Source: a virus
Lineage: Duplodnaviria > Heunggongvirae > Uroviricota > Caudoviricetes
DNA: 15,030 bases
Direction: 5' to 3' (one strand)
IMG/VR virus record: IMGVR_UViG_3300014749_000039
Location: 1 to 15,030 of that record
In this document: positions 1 through 15,030 of the stretch, in pieces
Position numbering within the stretch: position 1 is the stretch's first letter
How the letters are laid out: every line of letters starts with the position of its first letter
Notes under the pieces: model-generated
Told to the model about the DNA's origin: nothing
Database searches by the model: none
What the model saw: only the letters and a program-made list of their open reading frames with translations
Program-made: the position numbers and the translations under genes

Positions 1-1
1 C

Positions 2-952
2 AAAAAATGGCGACAAACCTATTTTTCCACGCCATCCAGCCTGACACACAGTGCTTATCCGTTCTGGTCCGGTGCGCTGTTCAACCGAGGGCGCAACAAA
101 GCCGATAAGGTGGACATCGACCTGTCCCACAGCAATCTGGCCCCCGGCCTGCTGTGCGCAGACGGGCAATACCGCCAGATAGTCACCGTGGAAGATGCGG
201 TGCGCGGCGGCTGTAACCTGTTCGACCTCGACCAGTTGCGCATGGAGTACAGCCCGGACGAATACCAGAACCTGCTGATGTGTGAGTTCGTGGACGATCT
301 CGCGTCTGTGTTCCCACTCAGCGAGCTGCAGGCGTGCATGGTGGACAGTTGGGAAGTCTGGACCGACTTTCATGCACTGGCCCTGCGCCCGTTTGGCTGG
401 CGCGAAGTGTGGATCGGTTATGACCCGGCAAAAGGTACGCAAAACGGCGACAGCGCCGGATGCGTGGTGGTGGCACCGCCAGCCGTGCCGGGTGGTAAGT
501 TCCGCATTCTTGAGCGTCACCAGTGGCGCGGAATGGACTTCCGCGCCCAGGCTGACGCCATCAAAAAACTGACCGAACAGTACAACGTGACCTATATCGG
601 TATCGACTCAACCGGCGTTGGTCACGGGGTTTACGAGAACGTGAAAGCGTTTTTTCCTGCCGTCCGGGAGTTTGTCTACAACCCCAACGTTAAAAACGCC
701 CTGGTACTCAAGGCCTACGACATTATCAGCCACCGCCGTCTGGAGTTTGACGCCGGACACACCGACATAGCGCAGTCCTTTATGGCAATCCGTCGCGCCA
801 CCACCGCCAGTGGCAACCGCCCGACCTATGAAGCCAGCCGCAGCGAAGAAGCCAGCCACGCCGATCTGGCCTGGGCAACGATGCACGCACTGTTTAACGA
901 ACCGCTGCAGGGCGAATCCGCCAATACCAGCAATATTGTGGAGATTTTTTGA
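2..952 (+). CDS. Terminase large (ATPase/nuclease) subunit, P2 gpP-like, C-terminal part; 5' end lies outside the window
   Basis: Reading frame is open from position 2 with no stop before the listed GTG at 110, so the ORF is truncated by the window edge. Translation resembles the C-terminal nuclease region of P2-family terminase large subunits, and the gene sits directly upstream of the portal gene as in the P2 P-Q operon. Confidence 0.7.
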   Translation, partial: KKWRQTYFSTPSSLTHSAYPFWSGALFNRGRNKADKVDIDLSHSNLAPGLLCADGQYRQIVTVEDAVRGGCNLFDLDQLRMEYSPDEYQNLLMCEFVDDLASVFPLSELQACMVDSWEVWTDFHALALRPFGWREVWIGYDPAKGTQNGDSAGCVVVAPPAVPGGKFRILERHQWRGMDFRAQADAIKKLTEQYNVTYIGIDSTGVGHGVYENVKAFFPAVREFVYNPNVKNALVLKAYDIISHRRLEFDAGHTDIAQSFMAIRRATTASGNRPTYEASRSEEASHADLAWATMHALFNEPLQGESANTSNIVEIF

Positions 953-1983
953 TGGGAAAGAGTAAGAAGAACCGCGCTGCGGCGACGAAACAGATCCAGC
1001 TTAAAAGTCAAACTACAGCCGAAGCATTCAGCTTCGGCGATCCCGTTCCTGTTCTGGACCGCCGAGAACTGCTGGATTATGTGGAATGCGTACAGATGGA
1101 CCGCTGGTATGAGCCGCCCGTCAGCTTTGACGGACTGTCGCGCACCTTCCGCGCTGCCGTTCATCATAGTTCCCCGATTGCAGTAAAGTGCAACATTCTG
1201 ACCAGCACCTACATCCCTCACCCGCTGCTCAGCCAGCAGGCTTTTTCGCGTTTTGTGCAGGACTATCTGGTATTTGGTAACGCCTACCTGGAGAAACGCA
1301 CGAACCGCTTCGGTGAAGTTATCGCCCTTGAACCTGCCTTGGCAAAATACACCCGACGCGGGTTAGACCTGGATACCTACTGGTTTGTGCAATACGGTAT
1401 GACCACGCAGCCATATCAGTTCACGAAAGGCAGCATCTTTCATCTGATGGAACCGGACATCAACCAGGAGATCTACGGCCTGCCCAGTTATCTTTCTGCT
1501 ATTCCATCCGCCCTGCTCAACGAGTCTGCCACGCTGTTCCGCCGCAAGTATTACATTAACGGCAGTCATGCAGGCTTCATCATGTATATGACCGACGCCG
1601 CGCAGAACCAGGAAGATGTGAACAACCTCCGCAACGCGATGAAAAGCGCCAAAGGCCCTGGCAACTTCCGCAACCTGTTTATGTACTCGCCTAACGGCAA
1701 AAAGGACGGGCTTCAGATCATCCCGTTGTCAGAAGTCGCAGCGAAAGATGAATTTCTGAACATCAAGAACGTGAGCCGGGACGACATGATGGCTGCACAC
1801 CGCGTACCGCCTCAGATGATGGGAATTTTGCCGAATAATGTTGGGGGGTTTGGTGATGTGGAAAAAGCAAGCAAAGTGTTTGTTAGAAATGAATTAATCC
1901 CATTGCAAAGAAGGATTCAAGAACTTAACGAATGGCTTAACATAGAAGTTATTATCTTTTCTCCATATAATTTATCCAATTGA
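952..1983 (+). CDS. Portal protein, P2 gpQ-like (alternative TTG start at 949)
   Basis: 343/344-aa ORF, the size of P2 portal. ATG at 952 overlaps the terminase stop TGA (950-952) as TGATG; GGAG at 940-943 as SD. The last ~40 codons (from ~1861) are markedly AT-rich compared with the rest of the gene. Confidence 0.7.
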   Translation: MGKSKKNRAAATKQIQLKSQTTAEAFSFGDPVPVLDRRELLDYVECVQMDRWYEPPVSFDGLSRTFRAAVHHSSPIAVKCNILTSTYIPHPLLSQQAFSRFVQDYLVFGNAYLEKRTNRFGEVIALEPALAKYTRRGLDLDTYWFVQYGMTTQPYQFTKGSIFHLMEPDINQEIYGLPSYLSAIPSALLNESATLFRRKYYINGSHAGFIMYMTDAAQNQEDVNNLRNAMKSAKGPGNFRNLFMYSPNGKKDGLQIIPLSEVAAKDEFLNIKNVSRDDMMAAHRVPPQMMGILPNNVGGFGDVEKASKVFVRNELIPLQRRIQELNEWLNIEVIIFSPYNLSN

Positions 1984-1990
1984 ATTTAAT

Positions 1991-2007
1991 GGGTAGTAAA
2001 ACTACCC
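1991..2007 (-). terminator. Short hairpin between convergent portal and DprA-like genes (possible bidirectional terminator)
   Basis: Perfect 7-bp inverted repeat GGGTAGT-aaa-ACTACCC immediately after the DprA-like stop codon (2009-2011); flanks are A/T-rich but there is no clean U-run. Confidence 0.3.
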
Positions 2008-2008
2008 A

Positions 2009-2971
2009 CTAAATCAGAAAGTGACTCATATTAGATCTATAAATATCAGAATTTATCTTAATTTTGCTTATTGACTCAGATATTACATTCATCAGTGAAT
2101 CATAGTCTTGACTAGTGCGCAAGGGATTAGCCAATTCATTATCAACAAGTTGTTGAGTTCCTTCGCAATTAAGTCCCAGTGGATTATCAGCCTTATGCGG
2201 TACAACAGCAAAAATAGGTCTTGCCGCTTTAATAGCAAAATCCGCCTGCGTCATTGTCCCACTATTTTTTGCTGCTTCGATTAGTATCGAAACTGCTGAT
2301 AAACCTACCTGGATTCTGTTGCGTTGCACAAATGACTGCTTGAATGCAGGCCTCCCTACAGGATACTCAGAAATCCAAGCCCCACCGTTAGATAAAATTT
2401 CATTTGCTAATCTAGCATTTTGTTTAGGCTTAGCGCTCTCTAAACCATGAGCTAATACAGCAATTGTTTTAGCACCTGCCTTAAGAGTTGCCTTGTGTGC
2501 ATTTGTATCAGTACCAATAGCTAGGCCGCTTACAATCACCACACCTCTTTCACAGATTTTCTTGGTAATTCTCTTCGTAATTTCTTCCCCTGCCATAGAA
2601 ACTTCACGAGAACCAACAATTGCAACTCCTGGCATCTCACTAAGAATATTTACGTCCCCCTTCAAATATAACATTGCTGGGGGATTTGGCGTAATTGCTA
2701 AACAAATAGGGTATTTAGCATCTCCAAAAGGAATTGGAACAATCCCCAATGATAAATGCTTGCTCAAATAGTCTTCAGCATTATGCAATGACGCTATAGA
2801 AAAGGTTGATTTTAAAATCCCGGCTGAATTAACACACTCAACCAATTCATATTCATCGGAAATAATATGGAATGGAATATCGTTAAATAATTTAAGCAAC
2901 CCTTGTTCTGATGCAAGTCTATCAACCTGTACCGATAGACCTAACAATATTTTGAATTGGGAAGGGTGCAT
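2009..2971 (-). CDS. DprA/Smf-like Rossmann-fold (SLOG-type) protein with ~100-aa N-terminal extension; second gene of the PRTase-DprA pair
   Basis: Translation contains the DprA core signature (VAIVGSREVS...VVIVSGLAIGTDTNAHKATLKAGAKTIAVLAHGLE...WISEYPVG...QRNRIQVGLS...IEAAKNSGTMTQADFAIKAARPIFAVVP). Start chosen at ATG 2969-2971, preceded by AGGAG; the listed ORF start at 2986 lacks an SD. Low GC. Confidence 0.75.
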   Translation of the reverse strand: MHPSQFKILLGLSVQVDRLASEQGLLKLFNDIPFHIISDEYELVECVNSAGILKSTFSIASLHNAEDYLSKHLSLGIVPIPFGDAKYPICLAITPNPPAMLYLKGDVNILSEMPGVAIVGSREVSMAGEEITKRITKKICERGVVIVSGLAIGTDTNAHKATLKAGAKTIAVLAHGLESAKPKQNARLANEILSNGGAWISEYPVGRPAFKQSFVQRNRIQVGLSAVSILIEAAKNSGTMTQADFAIKAARPIFAVVPHKADNPLGLNCEGTQQLVDNELANPLRTSQDYDSLMNVISESISKIKINSDIYRSNMSHFLI

Positions 2972-2975
2972 TATT

Positions 2976-3545
2976 TCACTCCTCATAATTAGCTGTTTCT
3001 AGTAACGCCAGTGGCAATATTGTCTTTGCGCCTGCATATCTTAACAGATAATAGCACGCCGTCATACTCCCCCCAGTTGTAGTAACATCATCAATAAGGA
3101 GAATAACCTTATCAGCCACATTGGATGTAACTCCGATTGTTGACATATGATGTTCGACAGAACGATCTCCGCCCCCCTTATGAGCACTCACTACTGTTGT
3201 TTTTCTCTGTAATGATTGGTTATATACAGCATTAGGAAATTTTTTCGCAATATCTTGCGCTATTTTTATTAAAGCTTGAGATACTTTTCCCTCAGCATGA
3301 GAAGGAACAATTGTTATCTCAAAGGGCACGTCGGTAAAAGCAACCCTACCAATCACATAGCTTTGGAGGCTAGAAGTTAAAAGTTGGGTAAAAATATTAA
3401 CAGCCTTTGCATACCCGGAATTTGAAGCGTCCTTCAAATCCATCATTGCCTTTGAAAGTCTATCCCCGGAACGAGGATTTCGCTCTCCTCGATATCGCCA
3501 AGGATGATATGTACCGCAAGAGTAAATTTTGATTGGCCCCATCAT
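2976..3545 (-). CDS. Phosphoribosyltransferase-domain protein (ComF/ComFC-like PRTase); first gene of the pair
   Basis: Classic PRPP-binding loop VILLIDDVTTTGGSM near the C-terminus. Stop TGA at 2976-2978 lies 4 nt upstream of the DprA-like start, so the two genes form a tight operon. Low GC. Confidence 0.75.
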   Translation of the reverse strand: MMGPIKIYSCGTYHPWRYRGERNPRSGDRLSKAMMDLKDASNSGYAKAVNIFTQLLTSSLQSYVIGRVAFTDVPFEITIVPSHAEGKVSQALIKIAQDIAKKFPNAVYNQSLQRKTTVVSAHKGGGDRSVEHHMSTIGVTSNVADKVILLIDDVTTTGGSMTACYYLLRYAGAKTILPLALLETANYEE

Positions 3546-3672
3546 TTTTCTGCGCCTTAAGAGTAGATATATCCATATTAAATGGATACTTACATCATTT
3601 ACAACCCAAAAAATGACACCAAGTTATCACTAATGACTTAGGTTCAAATGCCAAACTAACTCTCTGCGCGCG

Positions 3673-3691
3673 CTCGTATCCCCGCCACGCC
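3673..3691 (-). other. cos-like cohesive-end site of the P2/186 type
   Basis: Minus strand reads GGCGTGGCGGGGATACGAG; the first 13 nt match the start of the P2/186 19-nt cohesive end as I remember it (GGCG[A/T]GGCGGGGA...). It sits in a GC-rich patch between the portal-side cargo and the tum-like/A side, where cos lies in P2/186. Confidence 0.45.
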
Positions 3692-3736
3692 TGCCCGCTT
3701 TATGTAGTGGTTTTCATGCAGGTGCATGATCTACGC

Positions 3737-3764
3737 AAAAGCCCGCCAGTTCTGGCGGGCTTTA
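3737..3764. terminator. Stem-loop with short T/A runs on either side (possible bidirectional terminator near cos)
   Basis: AAAA-GCCCGCCA-gttc-TGGCGGGC-TTT: 8-bp GC-rich stem with 4-nt loop, flanked by AAAA upstream and TTT downstream. Confidence 0.35.
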
Positions 3765-4033
3765 GCAAAAACGATCCTCAAACGATCATGCAATCTCATG
3801 CAGCATAGACATGCACAGACGAGTAAAGCGAATCGGACTTTACGCAAGGTGAACTCCTCAGCGGGCATAATCAGTATGTCGGAAGATCTCTAAAAATGAA
3901 TAATTCGGTTAACAGGTATGCTTACAAAAGCATATATTTGATTAAAAATCATGTAAGGGGGAGGATCTCAAACTGAATCGCCACGGGTTTTACAAATTTC
4001 GATAGTCTCTCTAACGTTTCGGCTGAGGTCAAA

Positions 4034-4459
4034 ATGAAAAGCTTTTACGTATTAATTTTAATTCTGGTTGCAAGCTTTGTTAGCGTCCCAGTTCAGGCGG
4101 TAACAGCTAAAAACTATGAGAAAGGAACTAAAGCTCAACAGAAATCAATATCTTACCTTTCATGTGCATTCTATGGCAGTAGCACACAATTAGATCCTAG
4201 CTACACGGAGCAAGTACCTACAGCCGATATCAAGATATTACAGAAAGCAGCTTACCACGCTTACAACGATGCGCTCTCATACTTTGGTTATGAGGAACCA
4301 GATCACGAACAACGCATAATTGATTATGCTGAATTTGTGGCGTCGCAAGAAGCTGTGTTATGGGATAAACCAGGAATGAATGGAAAGCAGGTAACACTAA
4401 TTGCTCGTTCTCTCTACAATGAGAGTAACTGTAACTTGTTACTGGACTCAATTAAGTAG
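4034..4459 (+). CDS. Small secreted/periplasmic protein of unknown function (cargo gene next to cos)
   Basis: N-terminus MKSFYVLILILVASFVSVPVQA has a charged n-region, hydrophobic core and a VQA-V signal-peptidase-I-like site; no lipobox. SD GAGGT 5 nt upstream of the ATG. AT-rich relative to the phage core. Confidence 0.6.
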   Translation: MKSFYVLILILVASFVSVPVQAVTAKNYEKGTKAQQKSISYLSCAFYGSSTQLDPSYTEQVPTADIKILQKAAYHAYNDALSYFGYEEPDHEQRIIDYAEFVASQEAVLWDKPGMNGKQVTLIARSLYNESNCNLLLDSIK

Positions 4460-4618
4460 GAAAAAGATGGTATTTTGCCCGTAGTTTCAACCTTAATCTC
4501 CGAACCTGTCGCAGAACGGGCGTTCACTCATCAAATAAACGCCACACCTAACGCCTCACTGTACTCGTTGTTCAACCTTGCTGACGCCAGAAGCAATTTC
4601 AGACGCCAGCAACGTTTC

Positions 4619-4852
4619 TTAATGCAGCCAGCTGTCGTCTTCCCACACCTTCTGCATAATTTTCATCACTTGTTTTCTTTCTTCGTCCAGTTGCAGTCCG
4701 GTCAGTTCCACACCGTTAGAGCTACCTTTACGGATACGGATTACCGTTTTGGGATACAGGGGGCGCAGATTGCGGTAAAGCTCGGATTCAAGGGCGTCCA
4801 GGGTAGACTGGCTAATCTTCTGCTCTTTATCGATCATTATTTCAATGCGCAT
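4619..4852 (-). CDS. DinI-family protein
   Basis: Translation from internal ATG (4850-4852) begins MRIEIMIDKEQ... and aligns along its length with E. coli DinI (MRIEV..., ...WE..D.W at the C-terminus). GAGGTGA SD sits 8 nt upstream. The listed 101-aa ORF is an N-terminally over-extended version. Confidence 0.75.
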   Translation of the reverse strand: MRIEIMIDKEQKISQSTLDALESELYRNLRPLYPKTVIRIRKGSSNGVELTGLQLDEERKQVMKIMQKVWEDDSWLH

Positions 4853-4862
4853 AAAAGTCACC

Positions 4863-5051
4863 TCAGCTGATGACATCCATTGAGCGGTTGTATTCGTGGG
4901 TTCTGATTTTTGCCATGAGTTCATCAGTCAATTCAGAAACCCACTGCAGAGCCAGCCCCTTCTCTTCATCACTACACTCACTAGCCGCTACAAGCCTAAG
5001 AAAAAAATCAATGCGCTGGAGCTTCAAAGACTCCAAAAAATAGTCCTGCAT
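4863..5051 (-). CDS. 62-aa protein, first gene of the LexA-box operon; possible Tum-type antirepressor (function inferred from position only)
   Basis: Internal ATG at 5049-5051 is preceded by a strong SD AGGAGGAAAG; the listed 96-aa ORF start has none. Lies 10 nt upstream of the DinI-like gene and directly downstream of a LexA box. Confidence 0.55.
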   Translation of the reverse strand: MQDYFLESLKLQRIDFFLRLVAASECSDEEKGLALQWVSELTDELMAKIRTHEYNRSMDVIS

Positions 5052-5092
5052 CTTTCCTCCTATGACACCACACGCAACACTGTATGTATAAC

Positions 5093-5112
5093 CACTGTTT
5101 ATATTTACAGTA
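5093..5112. promoter_or_regulatory. LexA (SOS) box upstream of the 62-aa/DinI-like operon
   Basis: CACTGTTTATATTTACAGTA has the CTGT-N8-ACAG pattern with an AT-rich spacer, a near-consensus match, and overlaps AT-rich promoter-like sequence about 40 nt upstream of the operon start. Confidence 0.7.
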
Positions 5113-5204
5113 TATAATAATCTTACTGATGTAAAACGTTTTTTTACGTTCATCAGCCTGATATGCCTGGTATTATTAAGAGCACGAATTGTTAACCCGC
5201 GTAA

Positions 5205-7619
5205 TTAATACAGGTTCCGCCACTGATCATCTTCCTGCAAACGCTGGTTCCGATAGAAGATACGCAGGCCTGCTCCTGACGGAATACTGCCTCCGCGAAG
5301 GAGTAAATCGACCTCTTTCTCGCTGCCATCAAATCCTCTGGACTTCAGCTCATACACGAGCTGCAGTCGCTGATGGTCTGTAATTCGCTGTTTGTAGTCT
5401 TTACGCCGTTTCGGTTTCACCAGGCGTAACCTTGCTGCCAGTTCCCGGCGCTCTTTTTTGCTCATACTGTGCAGGTAATCGTGCAACTCCTTGTCATCCA
5501 TGCGGGTAATGTCCGTCCTGGTATCCCCATCAGCTGATTTATCTTTCCCTTGTTGGTTCAAATTTTCAGCAAGGGGACAGTTATTGCCACGAGTCCAAGG
5601 GGCGCAAGCGCCCTGGTCGGCTGCCGCCTCCTGAACGTCAACGGCTTTACGAACCATTTTCCACTTCACTGCATGAGTGCAGATCTTGCCCTCTGCAATG
5701 GGTGACCAGATGCCATAAATACGAATACCGTGATCGCCATAGGCGGTCGGCTCTTCGTTGATTTCATAAGCGGTTCTGATGAGGTGATATTTACGGGGAA
5801 CCAGTACGCCGCCCTGCTTCATGATGTAGGTGGCAAAGCAACCAGCATCAGCTGCAGCCAGAATGGCATCAAGGCGCGGGTTATCCAGTACCGGCGCACC
5901 TGCTTTTTTGTCACCCTGTTGCCTTGCCGCCTGACCAGCCAGCAATCGCAGTTCACGGTAAGCCTGACGCCCCGGAATGCCAAAGAAGCGGAATTGCTGA
6001 ACACGATGCAGAGACGCCCAGGCATTAACGTATTCAGCGTTATCACGCAGAGATTTACCCGTTTCCTTGCTGATCTCGCCAGCCAGACCACGCCCGTCAA
6101 TGTTCTTACTGATATATTTCGCGATGTAGCTTGTCGGCGTTCCTTTGCGCGGGTTAATCAACTCAGACTTAAAGCGCGGCCCAGTGTTATTGCCCAGCTC
6201 CTCGCGGTCTTCACGGATGGCAAACTTACGCAGTAATGCAGTGATGGCGCGGCGGTCTTTTTTGCGCATAAAACACAACAGGTGCCAGTGAACTGTACCG
6301 TCATGATGCGGCTCAGCCACCCGCACGCCATACCAGCGCAATCCGGCTTTGTGCATCGCCTTACGAAATGCAGCAAACATGCCGACCAGATAGTCGCTGC
6401 TTTGTCTTACCGTCGAGTTTGTCCAGGTCGGGTTGGGTCTGCCGTTATTGAGCGTGGAATGGAAACGCGACGGACAGGTGATAGTGTAGAAAACGGCGCA
6501 GTCACCGCGCATTTCCGCGATAAGCTCCAGACCTTTAACACAGGCCATCATCTCATTGCGGCGATGCGCCGGGTTGCTGCTGCTGGCGTTTACCACATCT
6601 TCCATATCCAGCGTGTCGCCGTCTTCGTTCACCAGTTCATGAGAACGGAAAAACTCCAGCGACTTACGGCGCTGCTCACGTTTATGCATCACGGCTTCAT
6701 AGCTGACATAGGGGGATGCTTTTTTGCTGACCAGGCAGACAGCACGCAACTGCTCTTCCCGCCATTCGCAACGCATCTTCCATAATTTCCGATACCACCA
6801 GTCGGCACACAACATACGCGCCAGCGAACCCGGAATGAGTTCATAGGGCACGGGTTTACGGCGGTTTCTTTTCCGACGGAGTTGCTCAAACGCAGGCGGA
6901 ATAACATCCAGACGCAGGGTTTCCGCTGCCACCTTTTCCCATGTTTTGCGGATTTCTTCTGGCTTAACGTCATCGGTGGCATACAAATCACCACAAGCGG
7001 CATCAAGGCACATGCTCATATGCGCAGCGACAAGGGTAGACAGGCGTTTCACCTGATCCTGACTCATTTCAGGCAGGATAAGCAGGCCATCCAGCCCTTC
7101 ATGGCTTGCCATAAAGCGAAAAGAAGTGGATAGCTGACAGTCGCGGACATGCTCCAGTCGTTCCAGACATGGCTTAATCGTCTCACGCAAATAGCGGGAA
7201 TAAGCCTTTGGCCTGCCCAGGCTGCTGAAATATTCAATACGTTGCATCAGCGGCTTGCTGATATGGGAAGGCTGGGCGTTGACGTCAGCCAGAATGACCA
7301 TGTCCGGATTAAAACGCTGCTGCTCATGCGCCAGCTTTGCCCGGCTAATGAGCTTATCCTGCTCCATTTCGCGCTGGACAGGATCACGGGATTCATTAAA
7401 GAAATAACGCTCCCAGACCTGATCACTCAGTGCCTCGCGGCGCAGTTGTTCCTGCTCGTTATCGGCAGCGTACAGAGTGATCAGGTTTGAAAGTGCAGAA
7501 ACCGGCGCAACTTCCGCCGGGTCCAGATAAGGGTTAATGGCCTTTTTTGGGCTGTTCCATGAGAATGCTGCGGCGACCTCGTTAAAGCCGCTGCAGTTGT
7601 TCATATCAGCATGGCTCAT
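5205..7619 (-). CDS. Rolling-circle replication initiation endonuclease, P2/186 gpA-like
   Basis: ~800-aa protein with an HUH-type motif ([10 protein letters not shown]) and a twin-tyrosine motif ([10 protein letters not shown]) typical of superfamily I rolling-circle initiators. Start chosen at ATG 7617-7619, which overlaps the Dam stop as ATGA; the listed ORF begins at an upstream TTG (7646). Confidence 0.8.
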
Positions 7620-8473
7620 GCACGCACTCCGTACACGGCGGAACAATCCACGCCACGCGAAGGATCAAATCCTATCCAGCAGCGCGGCCCGGCAACAGCA
7701 ATGATTTCTGTTGCAGATTTACTCTCACCAGGTGCCACGCCGATGCTGCGTTTTGCCTTGATGTAGTGGTGAGTAAAATTGCGATACAGCGAACGGATCA
7801 GGGATGTGTCACTGTTAGAAATAATGACCGGATATCCTTCTGATGACCGATGTTCAAGAACGGATGCCAGGTGATACTGGTCATCTTCAGTGAAACCATC
7901 AGTGTGATAGCCGGAAAACGTACCGTCATAAGGCGGATCGCAATACACCACATCCCCCGCGTGCAACATCGCCAGCGTTTCATCGAAGCTGGCGCAGATA
8001 AACGTTGCCCGCTGGGCTTTTACTGCAAATGCACGAATTTCTTTTTCAGGAAAATACGGATTTTTATAATTACCGTAGGGAATGTTGAAATGCCCGCTCT
8101 TGTTATAGCGACATAAACCACGGTAACCGTGACGATTGAGATACAGGAAATATATCGCTTTCATGAAATCAGTAATTTCAGTTGAGTAATTAAACTCCTG
8201 CCTTATGTTGTAATAATCCATCTCCCTGTTTGCGTTCTCAAATAAAACTCTGGCGCGAGATATAAACGATTCACAATCAGCGGCAACCTTTTTATAGAGG
8301 TTGATTAAATCAGGATTAATATCCGCAACCAGATAGCTGGGATAATCCGTCTCCATCATCACAGCACAGGAACCCGCGAAAGGTTCAACCAGTCGCGGGC
8401 CAGCAGGAAGATGTTTTTTCAGTTCGGACATTATGGCAGTTTTATTTCCCGCCCATTTCAGGATGGTGCTCAT
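7616..8473 (-). CDS. dam: DNA adenine methyltransferase, Dam-like (D12 class N6-adenine MTase)
   Basis: Translation from ATG 8471-8473 begins [11 protein letters not shown]...[11 protein letters not shown] and contains the DPPY catalytic motif, with overall resemblance to E. coli Dam. SD GGAGGTG upstream; a C-terminal tail overlaps the start of gene A. Confidence 0.8.
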
Positions 8474-8697
8474 ACAGCACCTCCGTTGTAATGTTTGCCT
8501 TTCAGCTCTGCGATTTCCTGACAGGTAATGCAAAGCTGCACACCCGGAATGGCACGGCGGCGTGCTGGCGGAATTGGCGCTTCACACTCAATGCAAAGCA
8601 CGCGGGACACGCCCGGCGTTTTGGCACGGGCAGCACGGATATGGCGTTGGCGTTCTTCTTCAACGCGCTGCTGTACGAGATCCATTGCATCAGCCAT
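8470..8697 (-). CDS. TraR/DksA-family C4 zinc-finger protein
   Basis: 75 aa with CIECEAPIPPARRRAIPGVQLCITCQ (CxxC...CxxC). AGGAGA SD upstream; stop overlaps the Dam start as ATGA. Confidence 0.65.
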   Translation of the reverse strand: MADAMDLVQQRVEEERQRHIRAARAKTPGVSRVLCIECEAPIPPARRRAIPGVQLCITCQEIAELKGKHYNGGAV

Positions 8698-8930
8698 TAG
8701 TGGATCTCCTGCGCTTCGTTCTGGATTGCTTCAGCAGTCACACGAAGCAGTTCTGCCGCTTCCACGTGGTTTAGCTGGCGGGATGAGATATGACACGCCA
8801 GGCTATCAAGGCGAGCTGCCATTGCTTCAGCCCTTGCCCGGCGTTCTTCCAGACGAGCCTCTGTCAGTAAAATATTAAGCCCTGCGTCAGCCGGTCCGGT
8901 TTTGGTCGAGAGGGTTTCAATATTACGCAT
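8697..8930 (-). CDS. Hypothetical early-operon protein (77 aa)
   Basis: ATG at 8928-8930 with AGGAGAA SD; the listed ORF starts two codons earlier at TTG. Stop overlaps the TraR-like start by 1 nt. Confidence 0.5.
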   Translation of the reverse strand: MRNIETLSTKTGPADAGLNILLTEARLEERRARAEAMAARLDSLACHISSRQLNHVEAAELLRVTAEAIQNEAQEIH

Positions 8931-9187
8931 AATCAATTCTCCTGAATTTAGATAAAGGGATGCCCGGCGGGTTTACGCCATTAATTTCATTAGTTGGTTA
9001 ATTCGGCATGGTTAGCCGTCTGGGGAATAAGCTCACCACTGCACGAAAATGATTCATTGCTTTAATCAACTCCCGCTTTTCGTCAGTGGTCAGCTCATTA
9101 ATGCTGATGCTATGACGTTCAGCTGGAATTTTTGCCATAAAGAATATGGCTGCCCGGGCTTCGTTTTTTTGTTTGTTATTGATTGGA

Positions 9188-9406
9188 TCATGGATTTTTT
9201 GCAATAAAGAATTGGGCAGCCAGTGCCCGTTTATTTTGTTCGCTATTAATATCGCGTGGATCACGCATATCTTTAATAAACCGTTCAAGCTCTGACTCAA
9301 TATTCAGACCAAAAACTTTCGCCCTTAACTCCGCAATGTGATTAAGTCCATTCAGGCGTTCACCGGGGCCTAATGGAACAGTCGCCGCAGCGCCATTAAT
9401 TGCCAT
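9188..9406 (-). CDS. Hypothetical early protein (72 aa); ends inside a tandem imperfect duplication
   Basis: ATG start at 9404-9406. Its C-terminal segment DPRDINSEQNKRALAAQFFIAKNP is repeated in diverged form in the +1 frame immediately downstream (ORF 8998..9300). Confidence 0.4.
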   Translation of the reverse strand: MAINGAAATVPLGPGERLNGLNHIAELRAKVFGLNIESELERFIKDMRDPRDINSEQNKRALAAQFFIAKNP

Positions 9407-9428
9407 AATTCATATTCCCAAAACGCAA

Positions 9429-9653
9429 CTATCGCTCTTTGTTCTTACGGTAACGCTCAAGAGGAGATATATTTTTTCGTATCATCTCTTTAACCTGCTC
9501 TCCCCGTAAAAACGTCCCATCCTTTAGCGTGAAAAAGTAACTGCCATCGCCCGACAACGACGGATAACAACAGAGCAAATCATCTTCAGATACTGAATAA
9601 CTCTCCCCTCTGTAACGAAACTGATAAACCACTTCACTTTCCGCTGCATACAT
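9429..9653 (-). CDS. Hypothetical early protein (74 aa)
   Basis: ATG at 9651-9653 with GGAGAAAG SD 6 nt upstream; overlaps the upstream ORF by 130 nt in another frame. Confidence 0.45.
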   Translation of the reverse strand: MYAAESEVVYQFRYRGESYSVSEDDLLCCYPSLSGDGSYFFTLKDGTFLRGEQVKEMIRKNISPLERYRKNKER

Positions 9654-9820
9654 TTTGACTTTCTCCGTATCCCCGTGGTCAATTCAGACAGCAATTCATC
9701 TTGTGAACGGCACGGATGCCAGCGTTTACCATCCTCACCCATGATCCAGCCGTGACCGTAGTGCATTGCCGGGCTTTGTTTTACCAGCAGCGATGCAAAT
9801 GATGGTTCTTTCGTCAGCAT
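9524..9820 (-). CDS. Hypothetical protein immediately downstream of cII (99 aa as written; C-terminal third looks like out-of-frame translation)
   Basis: ATG at 9818-9820 with SD GAGGTG overlapping the cII stop. The N-terminal ~50 aa look protein-like; the remainder is Cys/Arg-rich and overlaps the next gene. Confidence 0.4.
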   Translation of the reverse strand: MLTKEPSFASLLVKQSPAMHYGHGWIMGEDGKRWHPCRSQDELLSELTTGIRRKSKCMQRKVKWFISFVTEGRVIQYLKMICSVVIRRCRAMAVTFSR

Positions 9821-9827
9821 AAGCACC

Positions 9828-10337
9828 TCACAGCAAACCGAATGAAGCACCGAGGCCAGTCACGGTATCAACTGCACTCGCCATCGCAGGATTAGCCTGT
9901 AAACGGGCCTGCAATGAAACAGCAGCCAGCGCCATCAGTCGTGTTACAGAGTTAATGCTGCTGATAGCATCACGACGACCTGCACTGGTTTTTACATCGC
10001 CAGATACCGCACCTGCAGCAACACGCCCGATCTCTGCGGTTGCACTCATGACGTAATGTGGCAGTTTCTCTTTTGCCACCTCATTAATCGGTACACATGG
10101 CAGACAATGAATCTGTGCCAGAAAACCATCTATCAGCGTTGAGTCTTCTGTCAGATCGGTAAGCAGCCAGATTTCTGGCGCATTGAGCTGATGCGGTTGA
10201 TCTGGGTTGAGTTTGTTTCGCAGTGTCTGAACATTCATTCCTGCACGTTCTGCCAGCTTCGCCATATTGTGACGTAGTGCAAAAGCTCTACAGGCTTCAT
10301 CAAAATACGGATGTTTGGAAATCTTGTAATCAAACAT
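9828..10337 (-). CDS. cII: Phage 186 CII-like regulatory protein
   Basis: 169 aa, the length of 186 CII; N-terminal HTH-like region; AAGGGGG SD; positioned directly after the apl-like gene as in the 186 early lytic operon. Confidence 0.7.
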   Translation of the reverse strand: MFDYKISKHPYFDEACRAFALRHNMAKLAERAGMNVQTLRNKLNPDQPHQLNAPEIWLLTDLTEDSTLIDGFLAQIHCLPCVPINEVAKEKLPHYVMSATAEIGRVAAGAVSGDVKTSAGRRDAISSINSVTRLMALAAVSLQARLQANPAMASAVDTVTGLGASFGLL

Positions 10338-10369
10338 GCTGCCCCCTTAGAAAGTTCCCATAATTGAAC

Positions 10370-10612
10370 TTACTTACCAACAATGACGCGGAAGTTGGAA
10401 TGTCCGAGGGATTCACGGACCTGATCAGTTTTGTACATCAGATAACGCAGACTTACGCGGCCTTTGTTTTTTTCTTTCTTTACCATGTACTTAGCAAGTT
10501 GACCATGGTGAATTTTTTGGTAAACAGAGCCGCGGGAAATGCCCTCCCACTCTGCGAACTCTGCAGGTGTTGCCATCTCTTTTGGTACACGAATTGAAAT
10601 ATCAGTACTCAT
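10370..10612 (-). CDS. apl: Apl/Cox-like small HTH protein (excisionase / lytic-operon regulator)
   Basis: 80-aa protein with an HTH-like segment (EFAEWEGISRGSVYQKIHHGQL); first gene of the leftward operon, divergent from cI, as for 186 apl. Confidence 0.65.
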   Translation of the reverse strand: MSTDISIRVPKEMATPAEFAEWEGISRGSVYQKIHHGQLAKYMVKKEKNKGRVSLRYLMYKTDQVRESLGHSNFRVIVGK

Positions 10613-10658
10613 AGTGCAGTATCTCTTACTTTGTGTGCGTGTTAGTTCGTTTTAGCCC

Positions 10659-10720
10659 GTCTCTTAAACTCTCACATCAAGAGACAAGAAAACATTACGA
10701 TCCTGATTCAAGATTGTCAA
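10659..10720 (-). promoter_or_regulatory. Putative lytic promoter (pR-like) with adjacent inverted-repeat operator in the cI/apl switch region
   Basis: Minus strand has a perfect -35 TTGACA (10715-10720), a 17-bp spacer and -10 TAATGT (10692-10697). Immediately downstream is the inverted repeat GTCTCTT-N13-AAGAGAC (10659-10685); the half-site TCTCTTA recurs at 10622-10628. Confidence 0.4.
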
Positions 10721-10733
10721 ATGGAGATTACCA

Positions 10734-11366
10734 ATGTTAAACATCAGAATGGGTTCCGATACGGGAGGTAAAGCAGCTATTGAGAGGCTGCTTGCGGCTT
10801 ATGGATTCACAACTAAGCAGGCATTAAGTGAGCACCTGAATGTCTCAAAAAGCACTATGGCAAACAGAGTGTTACGTGACAGCTTTCCTGCTGACTGGAT
10901 AATTCAGTGCGCACTAGAAACCGGTGTTTCGTTGCTTTGGTTAGCTACAGGACAGGGAAGCATGAAAGCAGGATCTGAGACTGAAAAAAGATCTCACAAT
11001 GAGAACAAACAAGCAATTAAACCGTTATCTAAACTCATAACTCCATCTATTCCTAAAGGAACCTTGGAGAATGGACAACTCAGTATTGATGAAGAGATTT
11101 TCCTAGACCACAGCATATTACCTGCAAATTATGAAGAATCGATGTTCTTAGAAACCCCTACTGATTGTTATCTCATCGATAAATCAGTTAAACAAGTCAG
11201 CAATGGATTCTGGCTTATCAATATTGATGGAATGATTATTATTGCAAAAATTATGCGGATTCCCGGCAATAAGATTGTAGTAAATCAAGATGAAGCGTCT
11301 TTCGAGTGCTCTGCTGATGATGTGGAAGTTATTGGGCGTGCAGTCAAAGTAATAAAGAGTATCTAA
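10734..11366 (+). CDS. cI: CI-type immunity repressor (186 CI-like)
   Basis: 210-aa protein with N-terminal HTH region (TKQALSEHLNVSKSTMANRV) and motifs resembling 186 CI (CALETGVSLLWLATGQG; GFWLINIDG...FEC..DDVEVIGR). GGAG SD; divergent from apl and upstream of int. Confidence 0.75.
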   Translation: MLNIRMGSDTGGKAAIERLLAAYGFTTKQALSEHLNVSKSTMANRVLRDSFPADWIIQCALETGVSLLWLATGQGSMKAGSETEKRSHNENKQAIKPLSKLITPSIPKGTLENGQLSIDEEIFLDHSILPANYEESMFLETPTDCYLIDKSVKQVSNGFWLINIDGMIIIAKIMRIPGNKIVVNQDEASFECSADDVEVIGRAVKVIKSI

Positions 11367-11368
11367 AC

Positions 11369-12385
11369 ATGACTGTCAGAAAACAGCCAAACGGCAAATG
11401 GTTGTGTGAGTGCTATCCCAATGGACGCAATGGCAAGCGCGTGCGTAAGCAATTTGCTACGAAAGGAGAAGCCATTGCTTTTGAAAGCTTCACAATGGAA
11501 GAAGTGAATAAAAAACCGTGGCTAGGTGAAAAGGATGATCGGCGACGCCTATCAGAATTAATTGAGCTTTGGTATTCCCTGTATGGCCAGACACTCGCAG
11601 ACCCCAAGCGCCTCATGGCGAAACTTAGAATTATCTGTAATGGTCTAGGCGACCCCATCGCCTCAGAACTGACAGCCGGTGACTTTACAAAATACCGCGA
11701 AGCACGGTTAAAAGGCGACGTTCGTAACGAAGACGGCACACTAATGTCGCCAGTAAAACCACGCACGGTGAATCTTGAGCAACGTAACCTATCATCGGTT
11801 TTCGGCACATTGAAAAAACTAGGCCACTGGTCAGCACCAAATCCTCTCGCCGGGCTGCCAACATTTAAAATCGCTGAGGGGGAACTGGCGTTCCTGACCT
11901 CGGAAGAAATTAAACGTCTGCTAGATGCCTGCGCTGATTCTCAAAACCCCAGTCTGCTTTTGATTGCAAAAATATGCCTGGCCACCGGCGCACGCTGGAG
12001 TGAAGCCGAAAACCTGCAGGGCCATCAGTTATCTAAATACCGCATCACTTATACCAAGACGAAGGGCAAGAAAAACCGCACCGTGCCGATATCTCAAGAT
12101 CTGTATGACGAACTCCCCAAGAACAGAGGGAAGCTATTCACCCCGTGCAGAAAAGCCTTTGAACGGGCAGTAAAGCGAGCTGGCATCGAGCTGCCAGAGG
12201 GCCAATGCACTCACGTGCTACGTCATACATTCGCCAGTCATTTTATGATGAATGGCGGAAACATACTGGTCCTACGCGATATTCTGGGCCATGCCGATAT
12301 AAAAATGACGATGATTTACGCCCACTTTTCGCCGGATCATCTTGAAGATGCAGTTACTAAAAACCCTTTATGCAACTTAAGATAG
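11369..12385 (+). CDS. int: Tyrosine recombinase / phage integrase (P2/186 Int family)
   Basis: 338 aa; C-terminal catalytic region HVLRHTFASHFMMNGGNILVLRDILGHADIKMTMIYAHF with the R...HxxR...Y signature; immediately follows cI. Confidence 0.85.
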   Translation: MTVRKQPNGKWLCECYPNGRNGKRVRKQFATKGEAIAFESFTMEEVNKKPWLGEKDDRRRLSELIELWYSLYGQTLADPKRLMAKLRIICNGLGDPIASELTAGDFTKYREARLKGDVRNEDGTLMSPVKPRTVNLEQRNLSSVFGTLKKLGHWSAPNPLAGLPTFKIAEGELAFLTSEEIKRLLDACADSQNPSLLLIAKICLATGARWSEAENLQGHQLSKYRITYTKTKGKKNRTVPISQDLYDELPKNRGKLFTPCRKAFERAVKRAGIELPEGQCTHVLRHTFASHFMMNGGNILVLRDILGHADIKMTMIYAHFSPDHLEDAVTKNPLCNLR

Positions 12386-12758
12386 AGTAACTTATGAAAA
12401 TAAACTCAAATTATTTACAAATATTCAGCAGGTTATCCATTCTTATTTAACTCTTCAGACTGAGATTAGATTTTATTTATAGAATAAGATAATTTAATAT
12501 CACAAAAAACCTGTAAGCCCTCATCTTTGTTGTATAAAAACATAAAAGATGCCATATTCAAAAAAGTAGAAAAGCATTGCAATGCAACATTAAAAATAAG
12601 CCAATAAAAACCAGTCATTAGAAAATGAAAAAAAACAAAAACATTTTTTATCAAAGCTTCAGTCTGACTACTAGTTTGACTCTGCAATTAACTATCAAGA
12701 TGATCAATATTTATTGATCATCTTGAAGTTGCCCTCAGGAAAGATGAGTATAATATTT

Positions 12759-14492
12759 CTACTCAAGAAGATATTCTAACTCATCTTTTATCGGGATAAC
12801 TTGCTCATAAAGTCGGTGATATGACTTCCCAATTGCGCCTCTGAATTGTATTAACTTTGGTGGCTTGTTACCTATATTAATAATATGGTCTTGAGCTATA
12901 CCTGGGTAGGGATCAATAAATACAATTTCAGATATACCTAACTGATAAGCTTTTTTCGCACACAGCTCACAGGGACTGGCAGTTGTATATAACCTCCCCC
13001 CCTGAACGCCAATGCCACCATATTTTGCAAGTTGTAAAAATGCGTTTTCCTCAGCATGTAATGCACGTGTATGAACTTGATTACCTTTTTTATCTTTATC
13101 AAGATCATTATGTATATCTTTAAAACAATAAGATAAGTTCCTGCCTCTATAAATATCACCAGTTTTATCTATCGCCCTAAAATTTAATAGTTTCTCATTA
13201 GCTTTAATTCTGAAAGAACTATTATTTCTCTCATAATGACTGTACACTTTTTCATCAAAGTCGTTCATTAGGCCATCTAGCGATCTCATAGAGCAAGGAA
13301 TCTGACCGTTGGCGACATCATTCCAACCCACTGATTTTATTGAGTTTTCACCATCAGTTACTACAGCTCCCACCTGTCTAGATATACAACCAGAGTTTAA
13401 TTTTACCGTATACGCAACTTGCATAACCCTTTCCATTGCAGTAGGTGTTATCAGACCAGGATGCTTCATCAGTGCGATGTACCACGCTAATTGTGCTTTT
13501 AAAATATTGTCATTATCAAATTCATTTTTTGGGTTAAAAATGTGTATATCTGATAGTTCAATGCATTTAGTTACATTTGGATTAGTGAGATGTTTGTAAG
13601 AGTTATCACCTTTACCTGACTCTACAGAATCTATTTCCTCTATCTGCTTTTCAGAAAACTTATGTAGTTTCCGCAAATAGTTTGTTCGATGTTCATCTGG
13701 GGCATTTATTGACATTAAATGAAATGCAGAATATCTATCCTTAAAAAATTTTGCTTCATATGGATTTCTAATAGCATCTATGACAATTAATGCGTTATCT
13801 CTTTTGCTTTTTCTTATTAATTTAATAACCCTATTAATAGTTTCCGGCAAATGAAAAACAGATTTAGGTATAAACTCTTTATCTTCAAAATCGACTTCAA
13901 TACGCCCACGGCGTCTAATTGACTTACCTGCTAACTGATAGACTGAAACATATAAATTTGAGTTTATCGCATTTAGTTCAGCTTTGAATTCCTTAGTAAA
14001 TTTTCTAACTAACCTCAAAATTGATATAAATTTATTAATCGTTTTTTCATTAAGCTTCAATTCACTATTATGATCAAGCAAATTCTCAATTACATTTTTA
14101 AATCTTGTTAAAATGAGATTATCTGAAAATACACCAAAAGTTAATACATTATCTAAATGCTCTTTACTGATAGATTTATTAGATGATAGAATAAACTCAG
14201 AAGCTTCTTCAACTGTTAACATCAAAAGATACGCTGAGATTAGGTCACTCACCTTAATTGAGTAAAAATTTTCCCAGTGATTTTCTGCGAATTTTTTAAC
14301 TATATTATAACGATGGACATCCAATCCCTTGTAAAAACCCTGTAATTTACTTACATCAGGGAAGACTGTTTTTTCGTTTTCAAGAATATTAGCTGTTGTT
14401 GTGCAACCAGAACCAGTTCGACCTGTCAAACCGACTAAAATAAACTGCCCATTTTCAAGGAAAAGCTCACTAACGAATTTTTTTTCTTTCAT
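12759..14492 (-). CDS. P-loop kinase-like + deoxycytidylate/cytidine deaminase fusion protein (AvcD / defensive dCTP-deaminase-like)
   Basis: N-terminal nucleotide-binding loop LVGLTGRTGSGCTTT and C-terminal zinc-deaminase motifs HAEENAFLQ...PCELCAKKAYQLGISEIVF (H[AC]E...PCxxC). Very AT-rich gene in an AT-rich islet between int and the ssrA fragment. First codon is GTG (14493-14495) or ATG at 14490-14492. Confidence 0.75.
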   Translation of the reverse strand: MKEKKFVSELFLENGQFILVGLTGRTGSGCTTTANILENEKTVFPDVSKLQGFYKGLDVHRYNIVKKFAENHWENFYSIKVSDLISAYLLMLTVEEASEFILSSNKSISKEHLDNVLTFGVFSDNLILTRFKNVIENLLDHNSELKLNEKTINKFISILRLVRKFTKEFKAELNAINSNLYVSVYQLAGKSIRRRGRIEVDFEDKEFIPKSVFHLPETINRVIKLIRKSKRDNALIVIDAIRNPYEAKFFKDRYSAFHLMSINAPDEHRTNYLRKLHKFSEKQIEEIDSVESGKGDNSYKHLTNPNVTKCIELSDIHIFNPKNEFDNDNILKAQLAWYIALMKHPGLITPTAMERVMQVAYTVKLNSGCISRQVGAVVTDGENSIKSVGWNDVANGQIPCSMRSLDGLMNDFDEKVYSHYERNNSSFRIKANEKLLNFRAIDKTGDIYRGRNLSYCFKDIHNDLDKDKKGNQVHTRALHAEENAFLQLAKYGGIGVQGGRLYTTASPCELCAKKAYQLGISEIVFIDPYPGIAQDHIINIGNKPPKLIQFRGAIGKSYHRLYEQVIPIKDELEYLLE

Positions 14493-14687
14493 CACGTCCC
14501 ACTTATGAATGTAAGAATATTCAACATATTAATTATAATTTATTAACTCATTTTGTTCTAGATACTTGATGTAATGGCGGCACTTTGGCGACGGAGCATT
14601 AAAAACGCGTAAGACGAGCAAATACAACAAAACACTAACACATTGTTTTTAAATATAAATAGCTGTTTTTACTATACTAAAAATGGT

Positions 14688-14732
14688 ATGTAGGAATTTC
14701 GGACGCGGGTTCAACTCCCGCCAGCTCCACCA
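14688..14732 (+). other. ssrA: Partial tmRNA (ssrA) 3' end, ~45 nt ending in CCA: probable attachment-site repeat
   Basis: ATGTAGGAATTTCGGACGCGGGTTCAACTCCCGCCAGCTCCACCA matches my recollection of the E. coli tmRNA 3' terminus (T-arm GCGGG/CCCGC, acceptor strand, CCA). Sequence immediately upstream is AT-rich and not tmRNA-like, so this is a fragment and not a gene. Confidence 0.6.
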
Positions 14733-14860
14733 ATCATGATTGGACGGTGTAAGGACAACACCAACAAAAACAGGAAGTTAGAAGTCTCAGCAAAACACCG
14801 ACCAGACGGTGAGGAGACATAAAAGGATACGCAAAGGAGCCGCGGCTCCTGGTAACATGA

Positions 14861-14884
14861 AAGCCCACAGATGTGGGCTTTTTC
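14861..14884 (+). terminator. Rho-independent terminator-like hairpin
   Basis: AGCCCAC-agat-GTGGGCT followed by TTTTT on the + strand. Confidence 0.4.
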
Positions 14885-15030
14885 GTTGATGGTCAGAACG
14901 ACCAGTTCACACCAGCTACCGCGTTCCACGGGGATTCCACACCGGCACTATGGCTATACCCCACCCCAAGATGCCCGCTTAACGTACTGCTGAATGAGGC
15001 TTTAATACCTGCCTGGTATATTCCACGTCT

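Follow-up and report, generated by a model that had tools for sequence, protein, structure and literature searches.

A small accessory gene for a predicted periplasmic protein beside cos in a P2/186-type prophage of Escherichia coli

In this study, we found that a P2/186-type (Peduoviridae) prophage of E. coli carries, near its end, a genuine accessory gene for a small protein that is predicted to be exported to the periplasm. The gene lies at 4034-4459 (+) of IMG/VR virus record IMGVR_UViG_3300014749_000039, of which positions 1 to 15,030 were analysed (the window, 15,030 nucleotides in all, part of the prophage and at 3546-4618 100% identical to E. coli KK19-02). It is a moron gene that was acquired on its own and lies at the cos-proximal right end of the prophage, independent of the nearby ShosTA defence cassette and of the flanking phage operons. 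The anatomy of the gene and its protein, as given below, is very probably correct; a role as a periplasmic binder or inhibitor of the exclusion or immunity type is proposed tentatively.

Coding evidence, export and predicted fold

An earlier note, made from the letters of the window, had read this open reading frame (ORF) as an uncharacterised gene of 141 codons with its own Shine-Dalgarno (SD) sequence, a Sec signal peptide lacking a lipobox, and two cysteines in the mature protein, and our analysis agrees with it on these features. The ORF (stop codon included; the coding part is 423 bp) has the same ATG and length as the RefSeq coding sequence WP_000834899.1, annotated as a 'hypothetical protein'. 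This exact sequence is a MULTISPECIES hypothetical protein in RefSeq, the identical protein occurs on at least 1,000 contigs, and the PHROG 7437 profile matches it over its full length (residues 1-141 of 141, E 4.3e-99). The SD, GAGGT at 4025-4029 (+), stands 4 nt ahead of the ATG and, like the start codon, is conserved in the Klebsiella and Hafnia orthologous loci. The ratio of nonsynonymous to synonymous substitution rates (dN/dS) is 0.155 against the Klebsiella orthologue (90% identity) and 0.159 against the Hafnia orthologue (77% identity); therefore, 4034-4459 is a selected gene rather than a chance ORF. The protein is 100% identical and its frame intact across the loci inspected, and the DNA of the insert that holds it is at least 99% identical in 91 of 101 carrying E. 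coli genomes.

Searches of Pfam, NCBIfam, PADLOC and PDB sequences, with the single sequence as well as with the family profile, gave no meaningful match (0 families of the PADLOC-DB 2.0 defence models at E <= 0.1), and the sole family match is the above PHROG, which is labelled as of unknown function. Weak matches to PepQ and LolA (E 0.08-0.24) were judged spurious. One public record names the protein 'outer membrane lipoprotein-sorting protein', presumably from the same weak LolA resemblance. The accession WP_000834899.1 is not cited in any paper that we found. Relatives are few: a word-indexed search of 5.8 billion proteins gave 7 clusters, an exhaustive hidden Markov model search of 1.84 billion representatives gave 17 matches, 14 of them convincing, and a profile search added a few more. 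All family members are annotated as hypothetical, and one copy, from Enterobacter roggenkampii, is truncated ahead of the second cysteine.

The product is predicted to be a periplasmic protein exported by the Sec pathway and processed by signal peptidase I. By rule-based analysis, residues 1-22 (MKSFYVLILILVASFVSVPVQA, encoded by 4034-4099 on the + strand) begin with MK, continue with a 15-residue hydrophobic core (Kyte-Doolittle (KD) value 3.26) and end in VQA, with the predicted cut after residue 22, just before VTAK; the mature part has no further hydrophobic segment (highest KD19 0.35). The same n/h/c organisation with an AXA-type site is kept in 19 of 19 family members. Considering that their N-terminal sequences are otherwise divergent, the signal peptide is hard to explain away. 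A lipobox ([LVI][ASTVI][GAS]C or L-x-x-C) at the end of the signal peptide was found in none of the 19 members, the first cysteine being residue 44, which rules out a bacterial lipoprotein processed by signal peptidase II.

The mature protein of about 119 aa (13.4 kDa, acidic, pI about 5.1) is predicted to be a compact five-helix bundle in the periplasm. The AlphaFold (AF2) model, built from a 19-sequence input, is all-alpha with a predicted local distance difference test score (pLDDT) of 88.6 and a predicted template modelling score (pTM) of 0.77; pLDDT is about 95 over the mature domain, and low values (about 54) are confined to the signal peptide. The model helices span residues 25-50, 63-83, 91-110, 120-130 and 133-140. 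Five residues are invariant in the family, C44, C133, W110, Y128 and N132, with no conserved His or Met ligand among them, and the most conserved stretch, IIDYAEFVASQEAVLWDKPGMN (residues 95-116), covers helix 3 and the following loop. The model puts C44 where helix 1 ends and C133 where the last helix begins. Two invariant cysteines are as expected of a periplasmic disulfide, and a C44-C133 bond presumably staples the bundle.

The cos region, two variable sites and a lost neighbour

The gene had also been described as AT-rich cargo beside cos, and comparison with related phages bears this out. Phages 500465-1 and 813R9 have the dinI flank directly next to the cos block, whereas the window has about 730 extra bases at this place (approximately 3817-4545), which carry the gene. 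GC content of the ORF is 39.7% (36.6% at third codon positions, GC3), as compared to 50-59% GC in the phage core genes P, Q, and A. The gene is a moron because the insert is absent in related phages, its GC content is low, and its strand is opposite to that of its neighbours.

The position of cos was obtained by alignment. A 150-bp cos region (3665-3814) is conserved in Fels-2, RE2010, and Klebsiella and Yersinia peduoviruses, and phage fiAA91-ss has this region annotated as cosR. Read as its reverse complement, the stretch 3673-3691 gives the 19-nt cohesive end, GGCGTGGCGGGGATACGAG, which matches the cohesive end of phage 186, GGCGTGGCGGGGAAAGCAT, at 15 of 19 positions. Salmonella phage SEN8 and Erwinia phage EtG, in their linear records, both terminate at the base that corresponds to window position 3692. 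The P2 cos 19-mer was not found even when up to 3 mismatches were allowed, cos here differing at 4-5 positions. The ATG of the ORF is about 340 bp from the cos cut, and the right end of the virion DNA has the ORF as its last gene, at the map position of old/tin in P2.

On the other side of cos lies the ShosTA cassette (2009-3545, -), consisting of the DprA-like ShosA gene (2009-2986, -; PADLOC 9e-70) and the phosphoribosyltransferase (PRTase) gene ShosT (2976-3545, -; PADLOC 3e-18). The earlier note had the ORF divergent from this PRTase/DprA pair, which is right as to orientation, but the two do not form one unit, since cos lies between them; they are therefore at opposite ends of the virion DNA. 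A DprA plus PRTase cassette from this hotspot has been validated against T7 and lambda by Rousset et al. (PMC9122126). Co-variation of the ORF with the neighbouring cassette, which the note had put up for checking, was not found. A count over 5,426 complete E. coli genomes gave 101 with the insert (of about 1,278 with this cos region) and 14 with ShosTA, and the two are adjacent in only 9, that is, in 9 of the 101 carriers of the ORF. In E. coli, the identical protein occurs beside different Q-cos cassettes (ShosTA, a DUF262 protein, or a 208-aa hypothetical protein), and the loci of the 90% orthologue have AIPR, nSTAND, and DUF4325 cassettes nearby. Likewise, the hotspot table of Rousset et al. 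2022 (Table S5) lists the ORF, which was not among the arrangements that they tested, with HIRAN, trypsin, and DUF262/DUF1524 cassettes, and lists ShosTA also without the ORF. On the co-occurrence counts (101, 14, and 9) and the intervening cos, we rejected the possibility that the ORF is a third component of ShosTA.

Published surveys of the P2 gpA-gpQ hotspot treat the region as one locus and focus on cytoplasmic defence systems. Our results indicate that the hotspot here is two sites, Q-cos and cos-dinI, which vary independently. ShosTA, found with and without the ORF, occupies the separate Q-cos site, and the cos-dinI site contains the ORF in the window, a lipoprotein gene in Fels-2, and nothing in phage 500465-1. 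The Fels-2 gene, STM2726 (PHROG 1353; 3201-3932 of locus L005), is inserted at the same site, and its product is also envelope-targeted and of unknown function. Unlike the ORF product, it is an unrelated 243-aa sequence with a lipobox (LTGC), and it is encoded on the opposite strand. The cargo begins at the very edges of the 150-bp cos block, with 2009-3545 on one side and 3817-4545 on the other.

The left part of the insert holds the remains of two other elements. An IS3-family left-end remnant of about 97 bp (3829-3926; 74-82% identical to the ends of transposase genes annotated as IS3-family) comprises the terminal repeat of the insertion sequence (IS), the 5' untranslated region, and the first ~6 transposase codons in antisense. 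It abuts on its right a pseudogene stump (3927-4005, +), recognised by DNA alignment with the Hafnia locus L011 and by translation as the last ~25 codons of a gene for a 215-aa membrane protein with two transmembrane helices; it reads HIFD, an internal stop, KSCKGEDLKLNRHGFYKFR and the final stop. The same stump was found by tblastn in Klebsiella loci L006-L010. A P2-like prophage of Hafnia alvei has the 77% orthologue at another accessory locus, that between tail genes S and V, directly after the gene for the 215-aa protein (6333-6980 of L011). This protein has two N-terminal transmembrane helices, joined by a loop with positive residues, and a C-terminal domain of about 165 aa; the loop charge suggests a periplasmic location for this domain. 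K. aerogenes has, in another type of prophage, a family member of 34% identity, encoded downstream of a 219-aa homologue of the 215-aa protein (6267-6926 of L014; 29% identity, E 3e-18). From these remnants, we infer that the gene was once second in a cassette behind a 215-aa membrane-anchored periplasmic protein. An IS3-family insertion and later deletions would have removed this partner and left the exported protein alone. The 215-aa protein as an obligate partner or a toxin was rejected, considering that the 215-219-aa family is often alone in Enterobacter islands, beside HEPN and SIR2 genes (L023-L026), and that most members of the ORF family lack it.

The K. aerogenes prophage has five consecutive envelope-targeted genes (6267-8635 of L014), for the 219-aa two-transmembrane protein, the 131-aa family member, and signal-peptide proteins of 116, 157, and 141 aa. 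The 157-aa protein (Kae157) ends in LYSDKNCDLLK, which resembles the C-terminus of the ORF family; as for Kae157 being a paralogue of this family, the alignment is limited to the C-terminal 18 residues (probability 34%).

A sigma-70-like promoter candidate (TTAACA-18-TATATT, 10/12 by consensus match) lies at 3909-3938 (+), with its -35 in the inner part of the IS remnant and its -10 inside the stump of the lost gene. Of the 3 promoter-like sites found by consensus (2.1 expected), this is the only good one upstream of the ORF. It would fit a hybrid promoter created by the IS, and transcription of the ORF now probably starts from this junction promoter.

Proposed function and its alternatives

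The ORF product may act as a stand-alone, stoichiometric binder or inhibitor in the periplasm, which would alter an envelope step to the benefit of the lysogen. Expression would be independent of the phage operons, because the ORF is on the strand opposite to all its neighbours and outside any operon. The protein would be processed after A22, oxidized by DsbA, and remain soluble in the periplasm. In the likeliest version, it would confer exclusion or immunity against the envelope-penetration proteins of an incoming phage or against a periplasm-acting toxin. Binding or inhibition is the most economical mechanism considering that C, C, W, Y, and N make up the invariant residues, with no catalytic-type motif, that no partner is constant although the protein is conserved on phages, phage-plasmids, and islands, and that the loci otherwise carry exclusion and defence genes. 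We put the probability of this functional class, a lysogenic-conversion periplasmic binder or inhibitor of the exclusion or immunity type, at about 35-40%; the superinfection-exclusion or envelope-modifying role named in the earlier note is a prior only.

T4 Spackle (gp61.3), made as a 97-aa precursor, is in its 75-aa mature form a helical bundle with a disulfide bond, and it acts in the periplasm as an inhibitor of the gp5 lysozyme (PMC7677548). Like Spackle, the ORF product has a signal peptide of about 22 residues, a small alpha-helical bundle, and, presumably, one disulfide (PMC7677548), and it is phage-encoded and predicted to be soluble in the periplasm. By this precedent, a disulfide-bonded helical bundle of such size is able to inhibit in the periplasm, and the way in which Spackle works, alone and by stoichiometric binding, is proposed by analogy for the ORF product. 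Unlike Spackle, the mature ORF product has 119 aa rather than 75, and it is encoded by a prophage moron rather than by an early gene of a lytic phage. Neither sequence nor fold similarity places it in the Spackle family. Among P2-family temperate phages, the P2-like Vibrio phage K139 carries glo (PMC4870250), and Glo is likewise a small periplasmic accessory protein tied to exclusion or immunity; unlike the ORF, glo sits near int/cI and in a different host range. The P2 genes old and tin share with the ORF their map position, as last cargo before cos at the right genome end, but Old and Tin are cytoplasmic exclusion proteins directed at nucleic acid, whereas the ORF product is predicted to be exported. 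Membership in the Tai4/Rap immunity proteins of the type VI secretion system (T6SS) was rejected, the ORF having no adjacent effector gene and no sequence-family match, as was membership in the LprI/DUF1311 lysozyme inhibitors: hhalign aligns only the signal peptides (probability 9%), and no member of the ORF family matches PF07007.

The distribution of the family bears on what its target could be. All members with a named source are from Enterobacterales (Escherichia, Klebsiella, Hafnia, Enterobacter, Salmonella, and Citrobacter), and all contexts inspected are mobile elements: P2-like prophages at two loci, another prophage type in K. aerogenes, a Citrobacter prophage end, and a Salmonella plasmid, on which the copy adjoins IS and mer genes. 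Members about 50% identical to the Salmonella plasmid copy are found as lone, oppositely oriented genes (4998-5417 of L029 and 5001-5417 of L030) on non-mobilizable IncFIB plasmids of 108-116 kb, which carry a phage adenine methyltransferase, DUF4942, and RNase HI and are probably SSU5-like phage-plasmids.

Several points weigh against an exclusion or immunity role. No experiment or homology ties the ORF product to any function. The family occurs in phages with different tail types, and with such different virion types it is unlikely that the target belongs to a single injection machine; one on the host side, or one that is widely shared, is likelier. No sequenced phage record carries the gene, all known carriers being prophages or plasmids; with the ORF or a distant family member as query, tblastn returned no hit among 50,697 phage records, K139 with its glo being unconfirmed as part of this set. 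The promoter is a candidate by consensus match, and we saw no convincing terminator between the ORF and dinI. Finally, Foldseek searches with the model gave nothing significant against the PDB (best E 1.0, TM-score <= 0.37) or BFVD (best E 0.41), and no fold match to known exclusion or immunity proteins. The protein would thus be a small helical bundle with no identifiable structural relative in these two libraries.

Many prophage morons with signal peptides are fitness factors, and the ORF could be a moron for host fitness or virulence, encoding an HdeA- or Spy-like chaperone or stress protein of the periplasm, a binder of a ligand or metal, or a factor that acts on the animal host after release. 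An acidic, helical, periplasmic protein, as predicted, would suit such a role, and so would the varied sources of its carriers (human, poultry, cattle, dog, and water) and the proximity of plasmid copies to mer and IS elements. However, no match to HdeA, Spy, CpxP, cytochrome b562 or other periplasmic helical proteins was found among PDB folds, and the invariant residues offer no His or Met ligands. Furthermore, the family is confined to phage-type elements and absent from core genomes, and its loci are otherwise occupied by exclusion and defence genes. We regard this alternative as unlikely.

A protein of this make-up, small, exported, disulfide-bonded, and helical, as predicted here, is also what is usual for periplasmic immunity proteins. 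The ORF might accordingly be an orphan immunity gene, half of a pair resembling toxin and immunity or an acquired gene, protecting against a periplasm-acting antibacterial effector (a T6SS amidase or lipase, a colicin, or a pesticin-type muramidase) of competitors rather than against phages. The loss of the upstream partner while the small gene stayed under selection would agree with this, as would the homologue of the partner that lies in an island with an RNase toxin/CdiI pair. In the contexts examined, however, no family member adjoins a recognisable toxin gene, and the search of Pfam and NCBIfam gave no immunity family. Moreover, the partner family is often found alone in Enterobacter islands, which would be impossible for a self-toxic effector. 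An orphan immunity gene of this kind is improbable.

It is more improbable still that the ORF is an accessory of the lytic cycle, acting in the envelope on lysis timing or inhibition or protecting the wall of the infected cell, and not expressed in the lysogen. The T4 lysis-inhibition and Spackle proteins are periplasmic too, and the K. aerogenes homologue stands among the five envelope-targeted prophage genes described above. However, with carriers making up only 101 of the ~1,278 E. coli genomes with this cos region, the gene is dispensable; it is outside, and on the opposite strand to, every phage operon here, and it moves between unrelated loci and elements. That the ORF is a decaying, functionless survivor of a cassette broken by an IS, as the stump of the partner, the 97-bp IS remnant, and the truncated E. 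roggenkampii copy might suggest, is very improbable in view of the conserved SD and start codon, the intact frame with its uniform and widely distributed protein, and the purifying selection (dN/dS about 0.16) between the partner-less lineages of E. coli and Klebsiella, from which the partner-less gene is still functional.

Neighbouring features and implications

The right conserved flank of the insert is a DinI/Tum-like gene (4619-4852, -; Pfam DinI 1e-22, and RefSeq), which is convergent with the ORF and is followed by a small ORF, gpA, and Dam, onward to CI and integrase. At the left end of the window lie terminase P (110-952, +) and portal Q (949-1983, +). Over the last ~180 bp of Q (about 1800-1983), GC content drops from about 53% to 35-44%, and the portal is 343, 355, 346, and 341 aa long in prophages that differ in their cassettes; this fall and these lengths suggest that cassette exchange has breakpoints inside the 3' end of Q. 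Just past the integrase (11369-12385), a 578-aa gene (12759-14495, -; 27-36% GC) matches the PADLOC dCTP-deaminase defence model (E 2.9e-145), and represents another defence locus, located at the int-att end of the prophage or just outside it. A 55-aa ORF (3726-3893, +), which overlaps both the conserved block at cos and the IS remnant, matches no family, is unannotated in RefSeq, and is most probably not a real gene. Neither the Rfam scan nor the tRNA scan of the window gave a match.

The gene itself had been catalogued as hypothetical, including in the hotspot table of Rousset et al., and prophage morons with exported products are a well-known category. New in this study are the division of the hotspot by cos, the finding that the gene is independent of ShosTA, the traces of a lost membrane partner with an IS scar, and the lack of a fold relative. 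Returning to the periplasmic binder of the exclusion or immunity type, a bolder form of it, which we consider doubtful, is that the ORF is the founder of a phage- and plasmid-borne periplasmic exclusion/immunity family, with a helical fold unseen in solved structures, which acts alone, without its former membrane partner, on an envelope-stage component. If this is true, the target would be an envelope-stage one common to several phage types or to a periplasm-acting toxin, and the cos-dinI site would be a second, envelope-specialised defence locus, apart from the Q-cos site with cytoplasmic systems such as ShosTA. Absent a phenotype of this kind, the ORF would be one of many hypothetical morons and an ordinary finding; should it block the envelope step of infection or neutralise a periplasmic toxin, it would represent a compact single-gene mechanism with a new fold. 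The cos-dinI site of these prophages is able to carry envelope-targeted cargo, a predicted exported protein here and a lipoprotein in Fels-2.
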